Counted from the stretch's first letter, positions 9,296 through 14,425 are shown. The stretch is DNA of 24,000 nucleotides from Aeoliella straminimaris (GCF_024054565.1 NZ_JAMXLR010000095.1:165966-189965); one strand, 5' to 3'. Numbers and translations: made by a program. The notes: generated from the letters alone by a model not told the origin.

Positions 9296-10945
9296 CTACA
9301 ACACGACCGATTCCACTTCTCGGACAAATCGGCCTCGGTCGTCGGACAAGAACGACGCCATGATGTTGAACACCGCGTCACTGAAGCCGCCAATGTTCAA
9401 GATGTCGTCACGTTCCGGCGCCTGCGCCGTGGTGTAGGCCTGCAAGTCCATGCAGACCAACTTCGGCGCGGGGATGTCGTGACCGCCGATCCGCAATTGG
9501 TTCTTCACGAACTGCTGCCACTCGTCCATCACACCGGTCGCGCCGCGGGCACCGTAGCCGTAGGGCTGACCACGGCGAACCCAGCTCTCCGTGTCGCTCA
9601 CCAGCACAACGCCCGCAAACTGTCGCTTGCGGTAACGGATGTTGGCCTCGCGAAGCGGAATCGAGCAGTCGGTACCGCCGCCGCCGTACTTCGCCAATCG
9701 ATCGGCCAGGCTCAGAATGGTGTCCTGCGGATCGAACTTGACGTCGTAGGCCCGGGTGTCGAACGGGACGATCACGCTATCCGGGTTGCGCCGCAACACG
9801 GCGGCCGCAAACAGGGCTGCGACGTCAACGCAGCGCATCTTGCTCGTAGCGCCACGGCCATGCCAACCGGTGACCGGGCAACACATCGAGCCGGAAGTAT
9901 CCAGGCCGATCACGACCGGCCCTGGCAGTTCCGGAACGTTTCCACAGGCGATCTCCGCCGCCTTCGACAGCGCGGCCTTGATCTTCTGCGGAACGTCTGG
10001 AGACGCGTTCAGGTACGCGGCCAGGAACTGGTACGGGAACTGCCGCGAGCGACGGATCTCGTCCGCGTCTGCCAGGCGGTCGGCAACGTAGTCGACCATC
10101 ACGTGGTCCGCACGGCCGTTACTTAGTACCTCATGACGCATCAGCGTGTTGAGGTTCATCCGCACCGCCTGCGGACCCATCTGGCGGGCAATGGCCTTCC
10201 AGACCACGGGCCCTTTGGCTGCGGCGGCCAGCAGGTCCCACCGCACCGACAGGTCGGCGGCAATCAGTGCCTGCGCCTCGGCCGTTTCCGCACGACGGTA
10301 GGCATCAAGTGCCTGGACTTGCGCTGGCAGATCGCTCTTGCCGGCCGGCGCCCACTTCTCGATGTCCTTATCCGTCAACCAACCGAACAGCGCACGCCGC
10401 GCATTGTCGCGGGGCGTTGGCCGCGCCATGCGCAGTACGTCGCGAAGGCTTGGGTCGTTGCCGATCGATGCCGATAGCAGCTTACCAACCGACGCGTCGT
10501 TCAGCCAACGCTGGAAAGCCCGCTGCAGCGACGACGACAGACCCTTGCGACCGAACTGCCCCGATCGGATCATCTGAAACACGGTCCGCAGCACGCGACC
10601 GTTGTCCACAACCCGATCGAACACGCGGTGCATCAACTCCGTGTCACGCGTCGACAGCACTACCAGCAGCGCGGCTGGCATGTCCTTCATGTAGGCCCGC
10701 TCGCGGGCGTACACGGCCAGCTTGGCCAGGTAGAAATTGTCGTCGACCTGGTCGATCAGTTGCTTGAGCGTGTCAAGCTGATCCTCAGCACGAGCGTAGA
10801 ACACGCCGTTGAAGCAGCCAGTGGCGGCTAGCTGCGCCAGCGCATGCTTCGGCTCCAGCTTGTAAGCTGCACCGCCAGCCTCGTTGGTCGAGTTGGCCTT
10901 TGGAGGTAAACTCTTCACACTCGAAAACAGATTTTTGTTAGCCAT
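9296..10945 (-). CDS. rsr: Ro60-related protein Rsr (TROVE domain + C-terminal vWA domain)
   Basis: 549-aa ORF. The N-terminal part is TROVE-like ([31 protein letters not shown]). The C-terminal vWA has the MIDAS motif GLDTSGSM (DxSxS). RBS AAAGGAGG at 10951-10958, ATG at 10945. Confidence 0.92.
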
Positions 10946-10970
10946 CTCGACCTCCTTTCAGTGAAAAATA

Positions 10971-11088
10971 CCCGACGAAGCTTGGGCCGAGTTGCCGCGT
11001 CACAGACGCTGGAAGCTCCCGCTTCCGTGGCTACCGACGGGTGTTACCCCGACTCGGTTCGTGGATGTACTCCGCACCGACAGTCGGA
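10971..11088 (-). ncRNA. Y-RNA-like module 5, embedded in the rsr 5' leader (degenerate distal domain)
   Basis: The 5' strand UCCGAC-UG-UCGGUGC-GGAG-UACAU (from 11088) and the 3' strand CUCGG-N10-GUCGGG (to 10971) match the family pattern. The distal part keeps a decayed T-arm (CGGG-GUAACA-CCCG) and hairpins GGAAGC-GGGA-GCUUCC and GCGUC-UGU-GACGC. It is followed by UAUUUUU and then the rsr RBS. Confidence 0.5.
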
Positions 11089-11116
11089 CGTGTCTGGTAG
11101 TTGTTTATCAAAGGAT

Positions 11117-11256
11117 CCCGACGAGGGATTGCATTAGAGACTTTACGGCGAGCTACCATTGCTCCACGGCGCGACCGTTTCCTCGAAATGGCGCCGACGG
11201 GACTCGAACCCGTAACCTCCGGCGTGTGATGCATGTACTCCAACACGGCAGTCGGG
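11117..11256 (-). ncRNA. Y-RNA-like module 4 with a circularly permuted tRNA-like domain (YrlA-type architecture)
   Basis: Closing stem CCCGAC (11256-11251) / GUCGGG (11122-11117), plus UGGAG/CUCUA. The distal domain reads 5'->3': T-arm ACGGG-UUCGAGU-CCCGU, closed acceptor-like hairpin CGGCGC...GCGCCG (inner UUUC-GAG-GAAA), then U-G, then D-arm GAGC-AAUGGUA-GCUC. Confidence 0.65.
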
Positions 11257-11276
11257 ATATACGTGTGCGATAAATT

Positions 11277-11406
11277 GATCGACGAGGGGGCGACCAGAGA
11301 TATTTCTCATTGCTCTACCAACTGAGCTACATCGACGCCTGGCGCCGACGACGGGGATCGAACCCGTGACTCATGAGTTAACATGTACTCTAATCTGCAG
11401 TCGATC
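11277..11406 (-). ncRNA. Y-RNA-like module 3 with a circularly permuted tRNA-like domain (YrlA-type architecture)
   Basis: Three-segment closing stem: GAUCGAC (11406-11400) / GUCGAUC (11283-11277), UAGAG/CUCUG, and CUCAU/AUGAG. The distal domain is T-arm ACGGG-UUCGAUC-CCCGU, a closed acceptor-like hairpin CGUCGGCG..CGUCGAUG (8-9 bp), then U-A in the tRNA position 8-9 register, then D-arm GCUC-AGUUGGUA-GAGC. Confidence 0.7.
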
Positions 11407-11423
11407 GTAGGTTTGTGTTGAGT

Positions 11424-11585
11424 CCGACGAAGTGGTGGCGAGAGTTGCGTTTACGATCGTCCGTGCCCCCGTATGGAGGTCGTTGACTGGCCCCTTTGTC
11501 TCGGAGAGACTTTGGCGCCGTTCACTAGTCCGTCGCCCGACATCGCTACCTTAGGACCGTCATGTACTCCCAACCGTCAGTCGGG
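11424..11585 (-). ncRNA. Y-RNA-like module 2 (family closing stem, degenerate distal domain)
   Basis: 5' strand CCCGAC-UG-ACGGUUG-GGAG-UACAU (from 11585); 3' strand CUCUC-N11-GUCGG (to 11424). The interior holds an acceptor-hairpin-like GGCGCC-AAA-GUCUC-UCC-GAGAC-AAA-GGGGCC but no clean T or D arms. Confidence 0.5.
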
Positions 11586-11595
11586 CTATGTCAAA

Positions 11596-11669
11596 GACCA
11601 GCCAACGAAGATTTGGTTCGGATAAGGTCATCATTTCAGGATGTAGTCCGAACCGGCAGTTGACTGGTC
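11596..11669 (-). ncRNA. Y-RNA-like module 1 (minimal, stem-loop only)
   Basis: Self-contained hairpin. GACCAGUCAAC (11669-11659) pairs over 11 bp with GUUGGCUGGUC (11606-11596), and an inner helix GGUUCGGA/UCCGAACC follows. It carries the family motifs UG...GGAC-UACAU and CUUC-GUUG. It starts 2 nt after the tRNA-Cys discriminator. Confidence 0.6.
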
Positions 11670-11671
11670 AA

Positions 11672-11743
11672 AGACGCCGGTGGGAATCGAACCCACGAAA
11701 AACTGCTTTGCAGACAGCCGCCCGACCATCAGGCTTCAGCGTC
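11672..11743 (-). tRNA. tRNA-Cys(GCA), divergent (A8 instead of U8)
   Basis: Hand-folded cloverleaf, 72 nt. Acceptor GACGCUG/CGGCGUC. D-arm GCCU-GAUGGUC-GGGC. Anticodon arm GCUGU-CUGCAAA-GCAGU. Variable loop UUUUC. T-arm GUGGG-UUCGAUU-CCCAC. U73 discriminator, which is the Cys identity element. No encoded CCA. Confidence 0.7.
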
Positions 11744-13793: not shown

Positions 13794-13869
13794 GGTGACC
13801 GAGCGGAATCGAACCGCCGTCGTACGGAATCACAGTCCGTCTCCGGAAACCAGCACCGGACCCGGCCAC
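13794..13869 (-). tRNA. tRNA-His(GUG), divergent (5-bp D stem, G8, no encoded G-1 in the main register)
   Basis: 76 nt. Acceptor GUGGCCG/CGGUCAC. D-arm UCCGG-UGCUGGUUU-CCGGA. Anticodon arm ACGGA-CUGUGAU-UCCGU. T-arm GGCGG-UUCGAUU-CCGCU. C73 discriminator. Confidence 0.65.
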
Positions 13870-13871
13870 AG

Positions 13872-13961
13872 CGGAAGGCGTGGGATTCGAACCCACATGC
13901 CGCCTTCTGAGCGACTTCGCATTAGCAGTGCGACCCGGCAAGCCGTATCCGGCTACCTTCC
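13872..13961 (-). tRNA. tRNA-Ser(GCU), class II with a long variable arm (A8)
   Basis: 90 nt. Acceptor GGAAGGU/GCCUUCC. D-arm CCGG-AUACGGCUUG-CCGG. Anticodon arm UCGCA-CUGCUAA-UGCGA. 20-nt variable arm (GUCGC...GCGGC). T-arm GUGGG-UUCGAAU-CCCAC. G73. It starts 2 nt upstream of tRNA-His. Confidence 0.75.
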
Positions 13962-13972
13962 GTATTTTTCAG

Positions 13973-14043
13973 TGGACCCACCGAGAATCGAACTCGGATC
14001 TCCGACCAGCCAAGCCAGCGTCGTCCCGTTGGACCATGAGCCC
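13973..14043 (-). tRNA. tRNA-Ala(GGC), divergent
   Basis: 71 nt. Acceptor GGGCUCA/UGGGUCC with the G3.U70 Ala identity pair, and A73. D-arm UG-GUCCAACGGGACGAC. Anticodon arm CUGGC-UUGGCUG-GUCGG (two G.U pairs, U37). T-arm CCGAG-UUCGAUU-CUCGG. Confidence 0.7.
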
Positions 14044-14053
14044 TCGTGTTGAG

Positions 14054-14124
14054 TGGAGCGTCGGGGAATCGAACCCCGATTGCCTGGGTGCAAACCAAGC
14101 GTCTTCCCGTTGGACCAACGCCCC
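14054..14124 (-). tRNA. tRNA-Ala(UGC), divergent
   Basis: 71 nt. Acceptor GGGGCGU/ACGCUCC with G3.U70, and A73. D-arm UG-GUCCAACGGGAAGAC. Anticodon arm CUUGG-UUUGCAC-CCAGG. T-arm CGGGG-UUCGAUU-CCCCG. Confidence 0.8.
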
Positions 14125-14139
14125 GTCGCCTTCTATTAG

Positions 14140-14265
14140 AGGTCCGTCCGGGAATTGAACCCGAGCAGTATTTGTTCTTGCTACCGCCTTCGCCCTTCAT
14201 CTTCGCTATCGCTCGGCGGGCTCAGTTGCTACCAAGAACGTGTGCCGCCAAAACACTTACAGACC
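14140..14265 (-). ncRNA. tRNA-like RNA with about 54 extra nt replacing the anticodon loop
   Basis: Acceptor GGUCUGU/ACGGACC (7 bp). D-arm GUGU-UUUGGCG-GCAC. T-arm UCGGG-UUCAAUU-CCCGG. The 76-nt middle forms a 7-bp stem GUUCUUG/CAAGAAC plus CCGCC/GGCGG, capped by a purine-rich 26-nt loop. No 7-nt anticodon loop was found. Confidence 0.55.
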
Positions 14266-14271
14266 AAGCTT

Positions 14272-14345
14272 GGCTATCAGCTGTTAGCTATTGACTATAA
14301 GCCAGAATCGTCTGGCCCACAGCTTATAGCCAACAGCCGATAGCC
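14272..14345 (-). other. 74-nt hairpin spacer with a 20-bp stem
   Basis: Arms at 14272-14291 and 14326-14345 pair over 20 bp. The two non-Watson-Crick positions are G.U on the minus-strand RNA but A.C on the plus strand. Apical CCAGA-CGAU-UCUGG hairpin. It sits between tRNA-Val and the insertion-bearing tRNA-like RNA. Confidence 0.6.
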
Positions 14346-14352
14346 CAACCAA

Positions 14353-14425
14353 TGATCCCGGATGGAGTCGAACCATCGCTCTCCTGGTTGTCATCCAGGC
14401 GTCGTAACCGTTGGACCACGGGATC
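14353..14425 (-). tRNA. tRNA-Val(GAC), divergent D-arm
   Basis: 73 nt. Acceptor GAUCCCG/CGGGAUC (perfect). U8. D-arm GUCCAACGGUUACGAC. Anticodon arm CCUGG-AUGACAA-CCAGG. Variable loop AGAGC. T-arm GAUGG-UUCGACU-CCAUC. A73. Confidence 0.8.

Follow-up and report, generated by a model that had tools for sequence, protein, structure and literature searches.

A tRNA array, Y RNA-like modules and a Ro60 orthologue joined behind a putative attenuator leader in Planctomycetota

The DNA considered here is a 24,000-nucleotide (nt) window from Aeoliella straminimaris (NZ_JAMXLR010000095.1:165966-189965), whose minus strand carries a locus composed of a conserved leader, tRNA genes, five Y RNA-like modules (M1 to M5) and rsr, which encodes a Ro60 orthologue (Table 1). 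The rsr product lies above the Pfam cut-offs for the TROVE domain (PF05731, E 2.6e-09) and for the Ro60-type vWA domain (PF25045, E 1.3e-13), and Deinococcus radiodurans Rsr (2NVO) matches it over its full length (query residues 20-533, chain 28-530, E 3.7e-19), which confirms its initial identification as a Ro60 orthologue on the minus strand. Xenopus laevis and human Ro60 match it as well, and planctomycete TROVE proteins share 71-99% identity with it. Against the narrow NCBIfam equivalog model NF041674 (RNA-bind_Rsr), the window Rsr scores 79.6 bits, below the cut-off of 900, and it is accordingly classed as a homologue that falls outside that model.

A protein query with Rsr retrieved 80 loci from species-representative genomes (GTDB) at 71-89% identity, nearly all of them annotated as Planctomycetota, and array counts were based on the 55 whose sequence reaches 3 kb or more upstream of rsr. 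The closest of the 80 belongs to a Bythopirellula metagenome-assembled genome (L001, 89% Rsr identity); two further close relatives were added, L208 at 90% Rsr identity and L209, which is 99% identical. tRNA genes were called with ARAGORN, RNA families with Rfam (gathering scores of 29 bits for tRNA and 69 bits for YrlA, RF02553) and protein domains with Pfam and NCBIfam. At least three same-strand tRNA genes lie upstream of rsr in 41 of the 55 loci, and at least ten in 29 of the 55, so the linkage of rsr to tRNA genes, which the original prediction had left to a survey of relatives, is conserved. Arrays of at least 20 tRNAs occur in 19 of the 80 loci, and L001 has 40 tRNAs in 5 kb. Across all fetched loci, ≈700 same-strand tRNAs are found upstream of rsr, against 11 downstream of it or on the other strand. 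The median spacer between array tRNAs is 15 nt, and the arrays keep an order (Phe, Glu, Pro, Pro, Ile, Lys, Ile-UAU, Lys ... Arg-CCT, Arg-TCG, Arg-GCG, Cys-GCA) that is conserved across two orders, Pirellulales and Planctomycetales, across which Rsr is 71-80% identical. In 39 of 59 loci the array ends with tRNA-Cys(GCA).

Long tRNA arrays (L-arrays) have been described as non-periodic, same-strand, supernumerary, horizontally spread and often linked to HNH endonucleases, and both surveys of them list Planctomycetes among the phyla that bear them (PMC8421152, PMC4758250). Tran et al. set the threshold at 20 or more tRNA genes with a density of at least two per kb, and Santamaria-Gomez et al. 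speak of a long same-strand potential operon. The arrays of the relatives fit this published class, also called the tRNA array unit, as judged from their gene content; the window, with nine intact and two disrupted tRNAs in two blocks, is below the size criterion and is a remnant of such an array. Neither the L-array class nor the leader, which at 14461-14692 lies outside the range it covered, was recognized in the original prediction.

The array tRNAs differ from the housekeeping type. tRNA-Lys(UUU) genes from the arrays of six genomes form one lineage, unlike the stand-alone tRNA-Lys of the window in both acceptor stem and D arm; the latter, together with its terminator (14977-15081), sits 290 nt upstream of the leader Shine-Dalgarno sequence (14692) and is a separate unit, the sole housekeeping comparator within the window. 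Of 30 large arrays, 25 contain tRNA-Arg(GCG) and 15 contain Ile-UAU; no array contains Arg-ACG, the single example of which lies outside an array. The use of Arg-GCG and Ile-UAU avoids dependence on A34 deamination by TadA and on lysidine formation by TilS. Array tRNAs have cloverleafs with identity elements, many of them with reduced D stems and with unusual D arms and acceptor stems, and those of the relatives mostly score 45-65 bits in Rfam. These characters mark the array tRNAs as a putative private lineage rather than the housekeeping set, and the suspicion of a private tRNA set voiced in the original prediction is borne out by the distinct Lys lineage and by the use of Arg-GCG but never Arg-ACG. 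Some class-I tRNAs (Ala, Pro, Gly) reach 88-96 nt through hairpin insertions in the variable region, which give them long arms like those of class II (Table 1).

All five Y RNA-like modules proposed earlier for 10971-11669 prove to be real. They have in common the 5' CGACUG...GAGUACAU and 3' CUUCGUCGG motifs, with variants in M1 (GGACUACAU / CUUCGUUGG) that also occur in the first modules of other loci, and two of the five, M3 and M4, match YrlA end to end at sub-threshold scores (E about 6e-06). By their predicted folds, M3 and M4 have the YrlA architecture of closing stem, T arm, acceptor-like stem-loop and D arm, and M1, M2 and M5 share the closing-stem module alone, which would make them YrlB-like. 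Module edges are sharp: the outer 8-bp stems covary (UGACCGAC/GUCGGUCA, CACUCGAC/GUCGAGUG, AUCCUGAC/GUCAGGAU), and a direct count finds 79% of their positions paired versus 70% after shuffling. When 37 planctomycete YrlA-type modules were aligned and folded (MAFFT/RNAalifold), 16 of 25 pairs had compensatory changes, spanning the closing stem, T arm, acceptor-like stem and inner stem, with canonical D-arm sequence adjoining. As many as six orthologous types of module follow one another in constant order, and the window retains four of them in addition to the minimal M1.

The position of the modules is as constant as their structure. The module motif occurs one to eight times upstream of rsr in ≈71 of the 80 loci and essentially never downstream, and in the window all five modules lie no more than 725 nt from rsr, inside the 4 kb from a Ro60 orthologue within which Chen et al. 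(2014) consider a Y RNA linked. M1 begins 1-2 nt after tRNA-Cys and M5 ends 23 nt before the rsr ATG, within 1-2 nt of the spacings first proposed. In ≈45 loci, the last module, a U-run, a strong Shine-Dalgarno sequence and the rsr ATG fall within about 20-25 nt, so the rsr mRNA must start within or upstream of the Y RNAs. Between the modules of 19 loci there is also a conserved ORF-like stretch of 120-200 aa on the cassette strand (among them L041 6899-7378, L025 7050-7655, L002 7277-7642; ORF, open reading frame), which has no Pfam, PHROG or PADLOC match and may either encode a small protein or represent a further conserved RNA. ARAGORN labels some Y modules as odd, over-long or four-base-anticodon tRNAs (L004 1882-1976; L036 7259-7349), labels behind which Y RNAs may be concealed in planctomycete annotations.

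A conserved leader is found upstream of the first tRNA in every complete cassette. We number its segments so that segment 1 lies in a short ORF, segment 2 at the stop of that ORF, and segments 3 and 4 form the arms of a terminator; so arranged, the leader has the predicted anatomy of a classical four-segment attenuator. In the attenuators of trp and his operons, a ribosome stalled in the leader masks segment 1 and frees segment 2 to pair with segment 3. The planctomycete terminator and helix 2:3 were evaluated in alignment A3, an unbiased genome set. The 3:4 terminator is an 11-bp GC-rich stem followed by a U-run, is 97% paired and has three compensated pairs. In helix 2:3, GUGACACUCGG of segment 2 pairs with the 5' arm of the hairpin (segment 3); it is 85% paired and carries compensatory changes that would be superfluous for the terminator, for instance C-G replaced by U-A in three loci and G-C replaced by A-U in L081. 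Helix 1:2 joins codons 5-7 of the ORF (GGUCGAGU, segment 1) to ACUCGGCC just 3' of the stop, and is 92% paired with double-sided changes in eight of eight pairs, a result equalled by 0 of 500 shuffles. The minimum free energy (MFE) fold of the L021 leader combines 1:2 with 3:4, the off state, at z -5.6.

The leader ORF itself is also conserved. Its ATG is invariant, its modal length is 33 codons, and its stop is TGA in 87 of 88 leaders, inside the GUGACAC of the antiterminator strand. None of 31 unique ORFs is interrupted in this frame; of the other two frames, one has stops in 29 and the other in 14 of the 31. The consensus peptide reads MMSL(R/W)SSLTYERRCTGRFAGQPANTLPAHPLRL; translation of the ORF is predicted, with coding signals that are modest. 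One further candidate, GCCGGTCAACCGGC as a covarying RNA hairpin, was dropped, as it lies inside the ORF (F-A-G-Q-P-A-N) and its variation may reflect coding. In the relatives, tRNA-Phe begins 4-60 nt past the terminator and often only 4-7 nt past the U-run, which leaves no room for a promoter, so transcription of the array must read through the terminator. A metagenome scan with the leader pattern alone returned 81 loci, 71 of them with enough downstream sequence; 64 of these 71 have a same-strand tRNA within 300 nt, and 47 of the 64 start with tRNA-Phe. No Rfam family or riboswitch matches the leader in the window or in the relatives scanned.

At the opposite end, the unit closes directly after rsr. 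The strongest plus-strand terminators in the L001 and L021 loci lie directly 3' of rsr (L001 9659-9690, L021 9634-9667), and in both loci the only strong plus-strand terminators are the leader hairpin and this 14-15-bp hairpin with its U-run. The post-rsr hairpin of the window is homologous to the unit-closing terminator of the relatives, the homology with L001 extending to window position 9255. The 15-nt median spacer, the abutment of tRNA-Cys on M1 and of the last module on the rsr Shine-Dalgarno sequence, and the restriction of strong terminators to the leader and the post-rsr site together support polycistronic transcription. In the fetched loci, no gene family is conserved downstream of rsr, and no rtcB, PNPase or nuclease gene is conserved adjoining it. 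A giant ORF of 2137 aa (window 2590-9003, plus strand) converges on rsr; it has no Pfam match and is kept beside rsr in L209.

Table 1 Features of the window and, in the last row, over-long tRNAs of relatives
Feature	Coordinates	Strand	Evidence or remark
Post-rsr hairpin	9256-9287	(-)	14-bp perfect stem, z -5.1; U-run degraded
rsr, Ro60 orthologue, 549 aa	9296-10945	(-)	Pfam TROVE and vWA_Ro60
M5, type F	10969-11090	(-)	Closing stem and U-run, then rsr Shine-Dalgarno sequence and ATG
M4, YrlA-type (T arm, acceptor-like stem, D arm)	11115-11258	(-)	Rfam YrlA positions 1-114, 34.9 bits
M3, YrlA-type	11276-11407	(-)	Rfam YrlA positions 1-114, 35.5 bits
M2, type A, without tRNA-like domain	11421-11587	(-)	Motifs and closing stem; orthologue L001 7039-7199
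M1, minimal stem and short loop	11596-11669	(-)	11-bp closing stem in MFE fold
tRNA-Cys(GCA), last array tRNA	11671-11744	(-)	ARAGORN; Rfam 53.9 bits
Spacer hairpin	11745-11851	(-)	MFE -58.3 kcal/mol, z -8.1; inverted repeat; insertion relative to L001
tRNA-Arg(GCG)	11852-11924	(-)	ARAGORN; Rfam 43.4 bits
Spacer hairpin	11925-12000	(-)	MFE -36 kcal/mol, z -2.7
tRNA-Arg(TCG), weak	12001-12075	(-)	ARAGORN; Rfam 24.6 bits, under gathering score 29
Disrupted tRNA-Arg(CCT)	12076-12168	(-)	17-nt D-loop insertion, C:A acceptor mismatch
DUF7453/PEP-CTERM gene	12390-13694	(+)	Pfam DUF7453 E 5.7e-29; NCBIfam PEP-CTERM
tRNA-Trp	13717-13787	(-)	ARAGORN
tRNA-His, weak	13794-13869	(-)	ARAGORN
tRNA-Ser(GCT)	13871-13961	(-)	ARAGORN
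tRNA-Ala(GGC)	13972-14043	(-)	ARAGORN
tRNA-Ala(TGC)	14053-14124	(-)	ARAGORN
Disrupted tRNA-Thr(GGT)	14139-14265	(-)	≈50-nt insertion in or after anticodon loop
Spacer hairpin, near-perfect, 85 nt	14267-14351	(-)	MFE -58.5 kcal/mol, z -11.2
tRNA-Val(GAC), now first tRNA past leader	14353-14425	(-)	ARAGORN; Rfam 63 bits; 94.5% identity to L001 Val-GAC
Leader terminator (segments 3 and 4 and U-run)	14461-14493	(-)	Two stem mismatches in window
Segment 2, antiterminator 5' strand, GUGACACCUGG	14532-14542	(-)	Contains ORF stop TGA 14539-14541
Leader ORF, 46 codons, divergent	14539-14679	(-)	Peptide MLHTRSNIEP...RRW*
Leader Shine-Dalgarno sequence GGAGGG	14687-14692	(-)	Window sequence
Stand-alone canonical tRNA-Lys(UUU)	15008-15081	(-)	74.8 bits; own perfect 12-bp terminator 14977-15004
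Over-long class-I tRNAs	L002 5479-5566; L007 5767-5860, 5869-5956; L020 445-537, 1646-1741; L022 5543-5634		

The window holds a reduced version of this arrangement. ARAGORN calls ten minus-strand tRNAs in it, nine of which fall within the two ranges, 11672-12168 and 13718-14425, in which four and eight tRNA or tRNA-like genes had been predicted. Three of the four are intact and the fourth is a disrupted tRNA-Arg(CCT), which was aligned to the Arg-CCT genes of L001, L002, L007 and L021. Six of the eight are intact and one is a disrupted tRNA-Thr(GGT), which aligns with four Thr-GGT orthologues and is detected by ARAGORN in intron mode only; the last, at 14267-14351, was rejected as a tRNA-like gene because it folds as a plain hairpin. 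The Trp-His-Ser-Ala-Ala block (13717-14124) has spacers of 1-10 nt and the gene order of L001 5561-6165 less Arg-TCT and Ser-GGA, and both of its Ala tRNAs keep G3:U70. The window tRNA-His has C73 and no genomically encoded G-1, and matches Rfam only as tRNA-Sec at 25.4 bits, whereas its L001 orthologue reaches 55 bits as a tRNA. Both this gene and tRNA-Arg(TCG) score under the Rfam tRNA gathering score, which is consistent with relaxed selection on the window copy.

The window tRNAs follow the L001 order with deletions, about 29 tRNAs having been lost; the copy has gained three hairpins and the opposite-strand gene, and of its remaining tRNAs two are disrupted and two weak. The DUF7453/PEP-CTERM gene is absent from the corresponding site in L001 and L208 and is inserted cargo outside the system. 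L208 has an intact His-Trp-Thr-Arg-Arg-Arg-Cys run without this insertion, which supports a reading of the window copy as decayed. At the sites where the window bears hairpins, the L001 spacers are just 5-10 nt long, and the long spacer hairpins look like small inserted palindromic elements. Near-perfect low-complexity spacer hairpins of 60-110 nt are also present in relatives (L011 2526-2622, 3156-3257, 7144-7255; L036 4898-4992, 5068-5160). The MFE fold of the window leader is by default the antiterminator, or read-through, form, with helix 2:3 formed, and the first tRNA (Val) starts 35 nt after the leader U-run. Taken together, the window cassette is probably partly decayed and only partly functional.

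The arrays also bear signs of mobility. In 14 loci an HNH endonuclease gene sits inside the array, as a rule between tRNA-His and tRNA-Trp. Close relatives have anywhere from 0 to 40 array tRNAs, the genes on either side of the cassette differ even where Rsr identity is 89-90%, and BLAST of the window against L001 finds homology solely from the array to the post-rsr hairpin (window 15076-9255). This patchy presence, the homing endonuclease and the non-syntenic flanks point to horizontal spread of the arrays. Other genes embedded in the arrays encode an SPFH/Band-7 protein (eight loci), a 276-aa protein of no assigned family (nine loci) and, in L001, DUF4291. One complete genome (CP197414.1) has two full cassettes ≈200 kb apart (L048 and L054), each with a leader, 21-23 tRNAs, Y RNAs and rsr, and among cultivated planctomycetes the full cassette is carried by Stieleria marina K23_9 (L041), Novipirellula sp. 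SH528 (L056), Neorhodopirellula pilleata Pla100 (L052) and strain SH139 (L048 and L054).

Several single loci have peculiarities of their own. A second Arg-GCG/Cys pair ≈9 kb downstream of rsr in L011 (17080-17548) suggests a tandem second copy of the cassette. A group II intron domain lies just ahead of tRNA-Cys in L013 (6771-6847), a phage-type integrase gene directly follows tRNA-His in L167 (8122-9180, oriented), and IS66-family genes follow four tRNAs in L134 (2641-5629, oriented). Islands of glycosyltransferase, sulfotransferase and methyltransferase genes adjoin the cassettes of L081 (452-2527), L087 (634-4457) and L208 (7514-12338). In L007 a transfer-messenger RNA gene (796-1154) with the orientation of the cassette precedes the leader by ≈2 kb, which may be a coincidence.

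We read the locus as a copy of a widespread planctomycete operon in which an attenuator leader, a spare tRNA array, Y RNAs and rsr would together respond to translational stress or tRNA damage, and to this reading we assign a probability of roughly 0.6. From 5' to 3' on one strand, the cassette would comprise a leader with an ORF of ≈33 codons, up to 40 tRNAs interspersed with HNH, SPFH and small genes, one to eight Y RNAs, rsr and a strong terminator. Smooth translation to the TGA, or no translation, would leave segment 2 masked or held in helix 1:2, so that the terminator folds and the operon remains silent; an early stall of the ribosome in the leader would let segment 2 pair with segment 3, and transcription would continue. 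Such a stall could be triggered by a scarce or damaged aminoacyl-tRNA or by inhibited elongation, and, with no run of a single codon, the switch would sense stalling in general. RNase P and RNase Z would then process the precursor to release the spare tRNAs and the Y RNAs, and Rsr would be translated from the 3' end of the transcript. The array would replace the tRNA pool while Rsr/Y ribonucleoproteins, like those of D. radiodurans and Salmonella, help to remove or process structured RNAs that are defective. Co-transcription, RNase P/Z processing, Rsr binding and induction are what we infer from this arrangement. YrlA is known to mimic tRNA and to be cleavable by RNase P (PMC4201824), the Anabaena L-array is induced by translational stress (PMC8421152, PMC10272220), and damaged tRNAs switch on the RNA-repair operon rsr-yrlBA-rtcBA (PMC7790460).

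A bolder version of this proposal, tentative and in our estimate somewhat short of an even chance, regards the cassette as a mobile 'translation emergency' operon that would combine, on the same transcript, a stall-sensing attenuator, a near-complete tRNA set free of A34 deamination and lysidine (Arg-GCG, Ile-UAU), and up to eight Y RNAs with Ro60. In it, YrlA itself would have been born from tandem-tRNA junctions; the setting suggests that YrlA, in which a T arm is followed by a D arm, arose at the junctions of tandem tRNA genes in such arrays.

A number of observations weigh against the operon as we read it. In the window, the 1.3-kb plus-strand DUF7453/PEP-CTERM gene divides the tRNAs into two blocks, and so the earlier picture of one same-strand locus holds for rsr, the modules and the tRNAs, all on the minus strand, but omitted the gene that separates the tRNA blocks. 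Segment 1 is not recognizable in the window leader, the terminator of which has two mismatches, and a sigma-70 consensus scan of the minus strand (window 9000-15300) found no promoter. YrlA stays below the gathering score in the window and in every locus scanned (eight relatives), and at gathering scores Rfam reports tRNAs only in the window. The linkage is also incomplete: nine of the 55 rsr loci are without any array tRNA, and some leader-arrays have no rsr in reach (L167, cut by the integrase; L134, cut by IS66; L143 and L132). An ORF after the L143 array was considered as a divergent TROVE protein and is unsupported by Pfam. The array-less rsr loci lack the leader as well, so some other promoter must also be able to drive the Y RNAs and rsr. 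A supernumerary status of the array tRNAs is an indirect reading from the fetched loci, supported by the distinct Lys lineage, the two cassettes in one genome, the size range of 0 to 40 and the occurrence of Arg-ACG only outside arrays. Finally, the coding signals of the leader are modest, with a synonymous fraction of 0.20 versus 0.13 in the other frames and a third-position entropy of 1.14 versus 1.0; the leader ORFs have no run of regulatory codons; and their 27.4 distinct codons in 33, above rsr and near the random expectation, are a mere hint.

The signs of mobility allow the locus to be read instead as a selfish or cryptic mobile L-array kept by its homing endonuclease, with rsr and the Y RNAs as passengers, no regulated benefit to the host and the window as a dying remnant. 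We consider this unlikely, although it accommodates a good deal: the HNH genes in 14 loci, the group II intron, integrase and IS66 genes in or at the ends of arrays, the unconserved flanks of even close relatives, the deletions, insertions, disrupted tRNAs and weakened attenuator of the window, and the description of L-arrays as mostly cryptic (PMC8421152). Against it, the arrays retain cloverleafs and identity elements such as G3:U70, with most tRNAs at 45-65 bits, and a gene order shared by two orders. Moreover, the compensated terminator, 2:3 and 1:2 helices and the conserved ORF imply selection for regulated expression, and the fixed junction of Y module, Shine-Dalgarno sequence and ATG implies selection too. 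The phage-derived cassette that the original prediction also raised is weakly favored by the embedded HNH genes and by an analogue in phage Mx1; phage origin was rejected for the two IMG/VR contigs, L081 and L087, on account of their non-phage glycosyltransferase/radical-SAM flanks and the absence of phage structural genes from the fetched parts.

For the leader alone, control need not depend on translation. The hairpin and U-run could be under protein or ligand control, or could end a small upstream RNA, with the ORF incidental, as the lack of regulatory codon runs, the weak Shine-Dalgarno sequence of many leader copies and the modest coding signals would allow; the Anabaena L-array is under the repressor TrcR and not attenuation (PMC10272220). 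The ORF, however, keeps its length, start and stop in 87 of 88 leaders, its stop falls exactly in the antiterminator strand, and segment 1 within it covaries with segment 2. A terminator 4-7 nt before tRNA-Phe demands read-through, and no Rfam riboswitch family matches. These features make a leader that ignores translation quite unlikely.

The private character of the array tRNAs lends itself to a narrower form of the operon reading, in which spare isodecoders would resist or replace tRNAs cleaved by anticodon nucleases and Rsr/Y ribonucleoproteins would remove the fragments. The distinct lineage with unusual D arms and acceptor stems would suit such a counter-measure against tRNA toxins, as would an Arg-GCG/Ile-UAU set independent of A34 deamination and lysidine. 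The phage Mx1 Ro60 homologue, which lies among tRNAs, a peptidyl-tRNA hydrolase gene and an HNH gene, points the same way, and in Salmonella rsr is induced by tRNA damage (PMC7790460). Still, PADLOC finds no known defence family among the cassette proteins beyond generic HNH similarity, and no nuclease or toxin gene is conserved nearby, which leaves this specialization very unlikely. The last alternative, an ordinary housekeeping tRNA cluster beside rsr by chance, with the Y modules as decayed tRNAs or tRNA-dimer artefacts, has next to no probability. Many bacteria do have tRNA clusters, covariance searches can mistake tandem tRNAs for YrlA (the caveat of Chen et al.) and ARAGORN does call a few modules odd tRNAs, but the arrays range from 0 to 40 tRNAs in relatives and occur twice in one genome, and the canonical tRNA-Lys of the window, which has a terminator to itself, belongs to another lineage. 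The Ro-binding-type 5' CGACUG motif and a covarying closing stem recur in all modules, and modules are found only between array and rsr.

If the operon reading holds, it bears on two separate puzzles. The conservation of Ro60 and Y RNAs extends from bacteria to humans, and their bacterial role is known in few species; a phylum-wide linkage to spare tRNAs suggests that what they serve is tRNA and translation homeostasis. Long tRNA arrays are themselves puzzling and mostly silent, and a conserved attenuator would provide a mutable switch and predict inducers. Y RNAs that score below the Rfam threshold are probably missed by routine annotation, which would help to explain why the link has been overlooked. 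A full-text literature search, of incomplete coverage that leaves absence unproven, found no paper describing the fusion of L-array, Rsr and Y RNAs or its attenuator, in agreement with the original prediction, which did not recognize a fusion of rsr and Y RNAs with tRNAs as described.

Among known systems, the trn operon of PCC 7120 and the arrays of Acidithiobacillus and Mycobacterium likewise consist of dozens of tight, same-strand, non-periodic tRNAs that add isodecoders, and they are likewise patchy, associated with HNH genes and set in a neighbourhood of RNA-processing genes. The planctomycete arrays differ from them in that their 3' end is fused to a Y RNA array and rsr; Ro60, Rsr and Y RNA go unmentioned in the two L-array papers. 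At the 5' end, a leader-peptide attenuator takes the place of the TrcR repressor that acts on promoter repeats in Anabaena. The rsr-yrlBA-rtcBA operon of Salmonella and other Proteobacteria (PMC4201824, PMC7790460) likewise has a Ro60 orthologue adjoining tRNA-mimicking Y RNAs and a theme of tRNA damage. In the nearest non-planctomycete relatives of the window Rsr (42-44% identical, on proteobacterial plasmids), a divergent rtcR faces rsr, after which come two or three YrlA genes, rtcB and rtcA, with no tRNAs. The Y RNAs of Proteobacteria are thus encoded downstream of rsr, whereas those of Planctomycetes lie upstream of it, up to six to eight in number, with tRNA arrays before them and no linked rtc genes. 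The Ro-binding 5' motif is CGACUG in Planctomycetes versus CGAAUG in Proteobacteria, and the planctomycete modules score under the Rfam gathering score. In D. radiodurans, the Rsr-Yrn1-PNPase complex (RYPER), which degrades RNA, likewise involves Rsr and stress-induced Y RNAs encoded upstream, several of them adjoining rsr, and no tRNA array or attenuator is described for it, unlike the planctomycete cassette (PMC4201824).

Phages provide a looser parallel. Myxococcus phage Mx1 (L082, OR576727.2 49222-63924) has a Ro60 homologue, 40% identical, on the same strand as at least 13 scattered tRNAs, together with a peptidyl-tRNA hydrolase gene and an HNH endonuclease gene; its tRNAs are interspersed with protein genes and do not form a dense array. 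No YrlA was found near the Mx1 Ro60 gene at E <= 0.001, the Ro gene of mycobacteriophage Myrna has no tRNA within 6 kb, and the leader pattern is absent from the phage regions L082 and L083.

The trp, his, pheA and antibiotic-responsive attenuators share a short ORF, mutually exclusive 1:2, 2:3 and 3:4 helices and a U-run. The planctomycete leader resembles the trp type in having segment 1 in the ORF, segment 2 at the stop and a GC-rich 3:4 hairpin with U-run. Unlike those of trp, his and pheA (pheL is among the leader-peptide attenuators; PMC3082878), it precedes an apparent tRNA/Y RNA/rsr operon and not genes for amino-acid biosynthesis or resistance, and its predicted peptide is conserved and codon-diverse. 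Overall, the L-array, the Rsr/YrlA-type Y RNAs and the leader-peptide attenuator are each of a known kind, and it is their conserved fusion that appears to be new.

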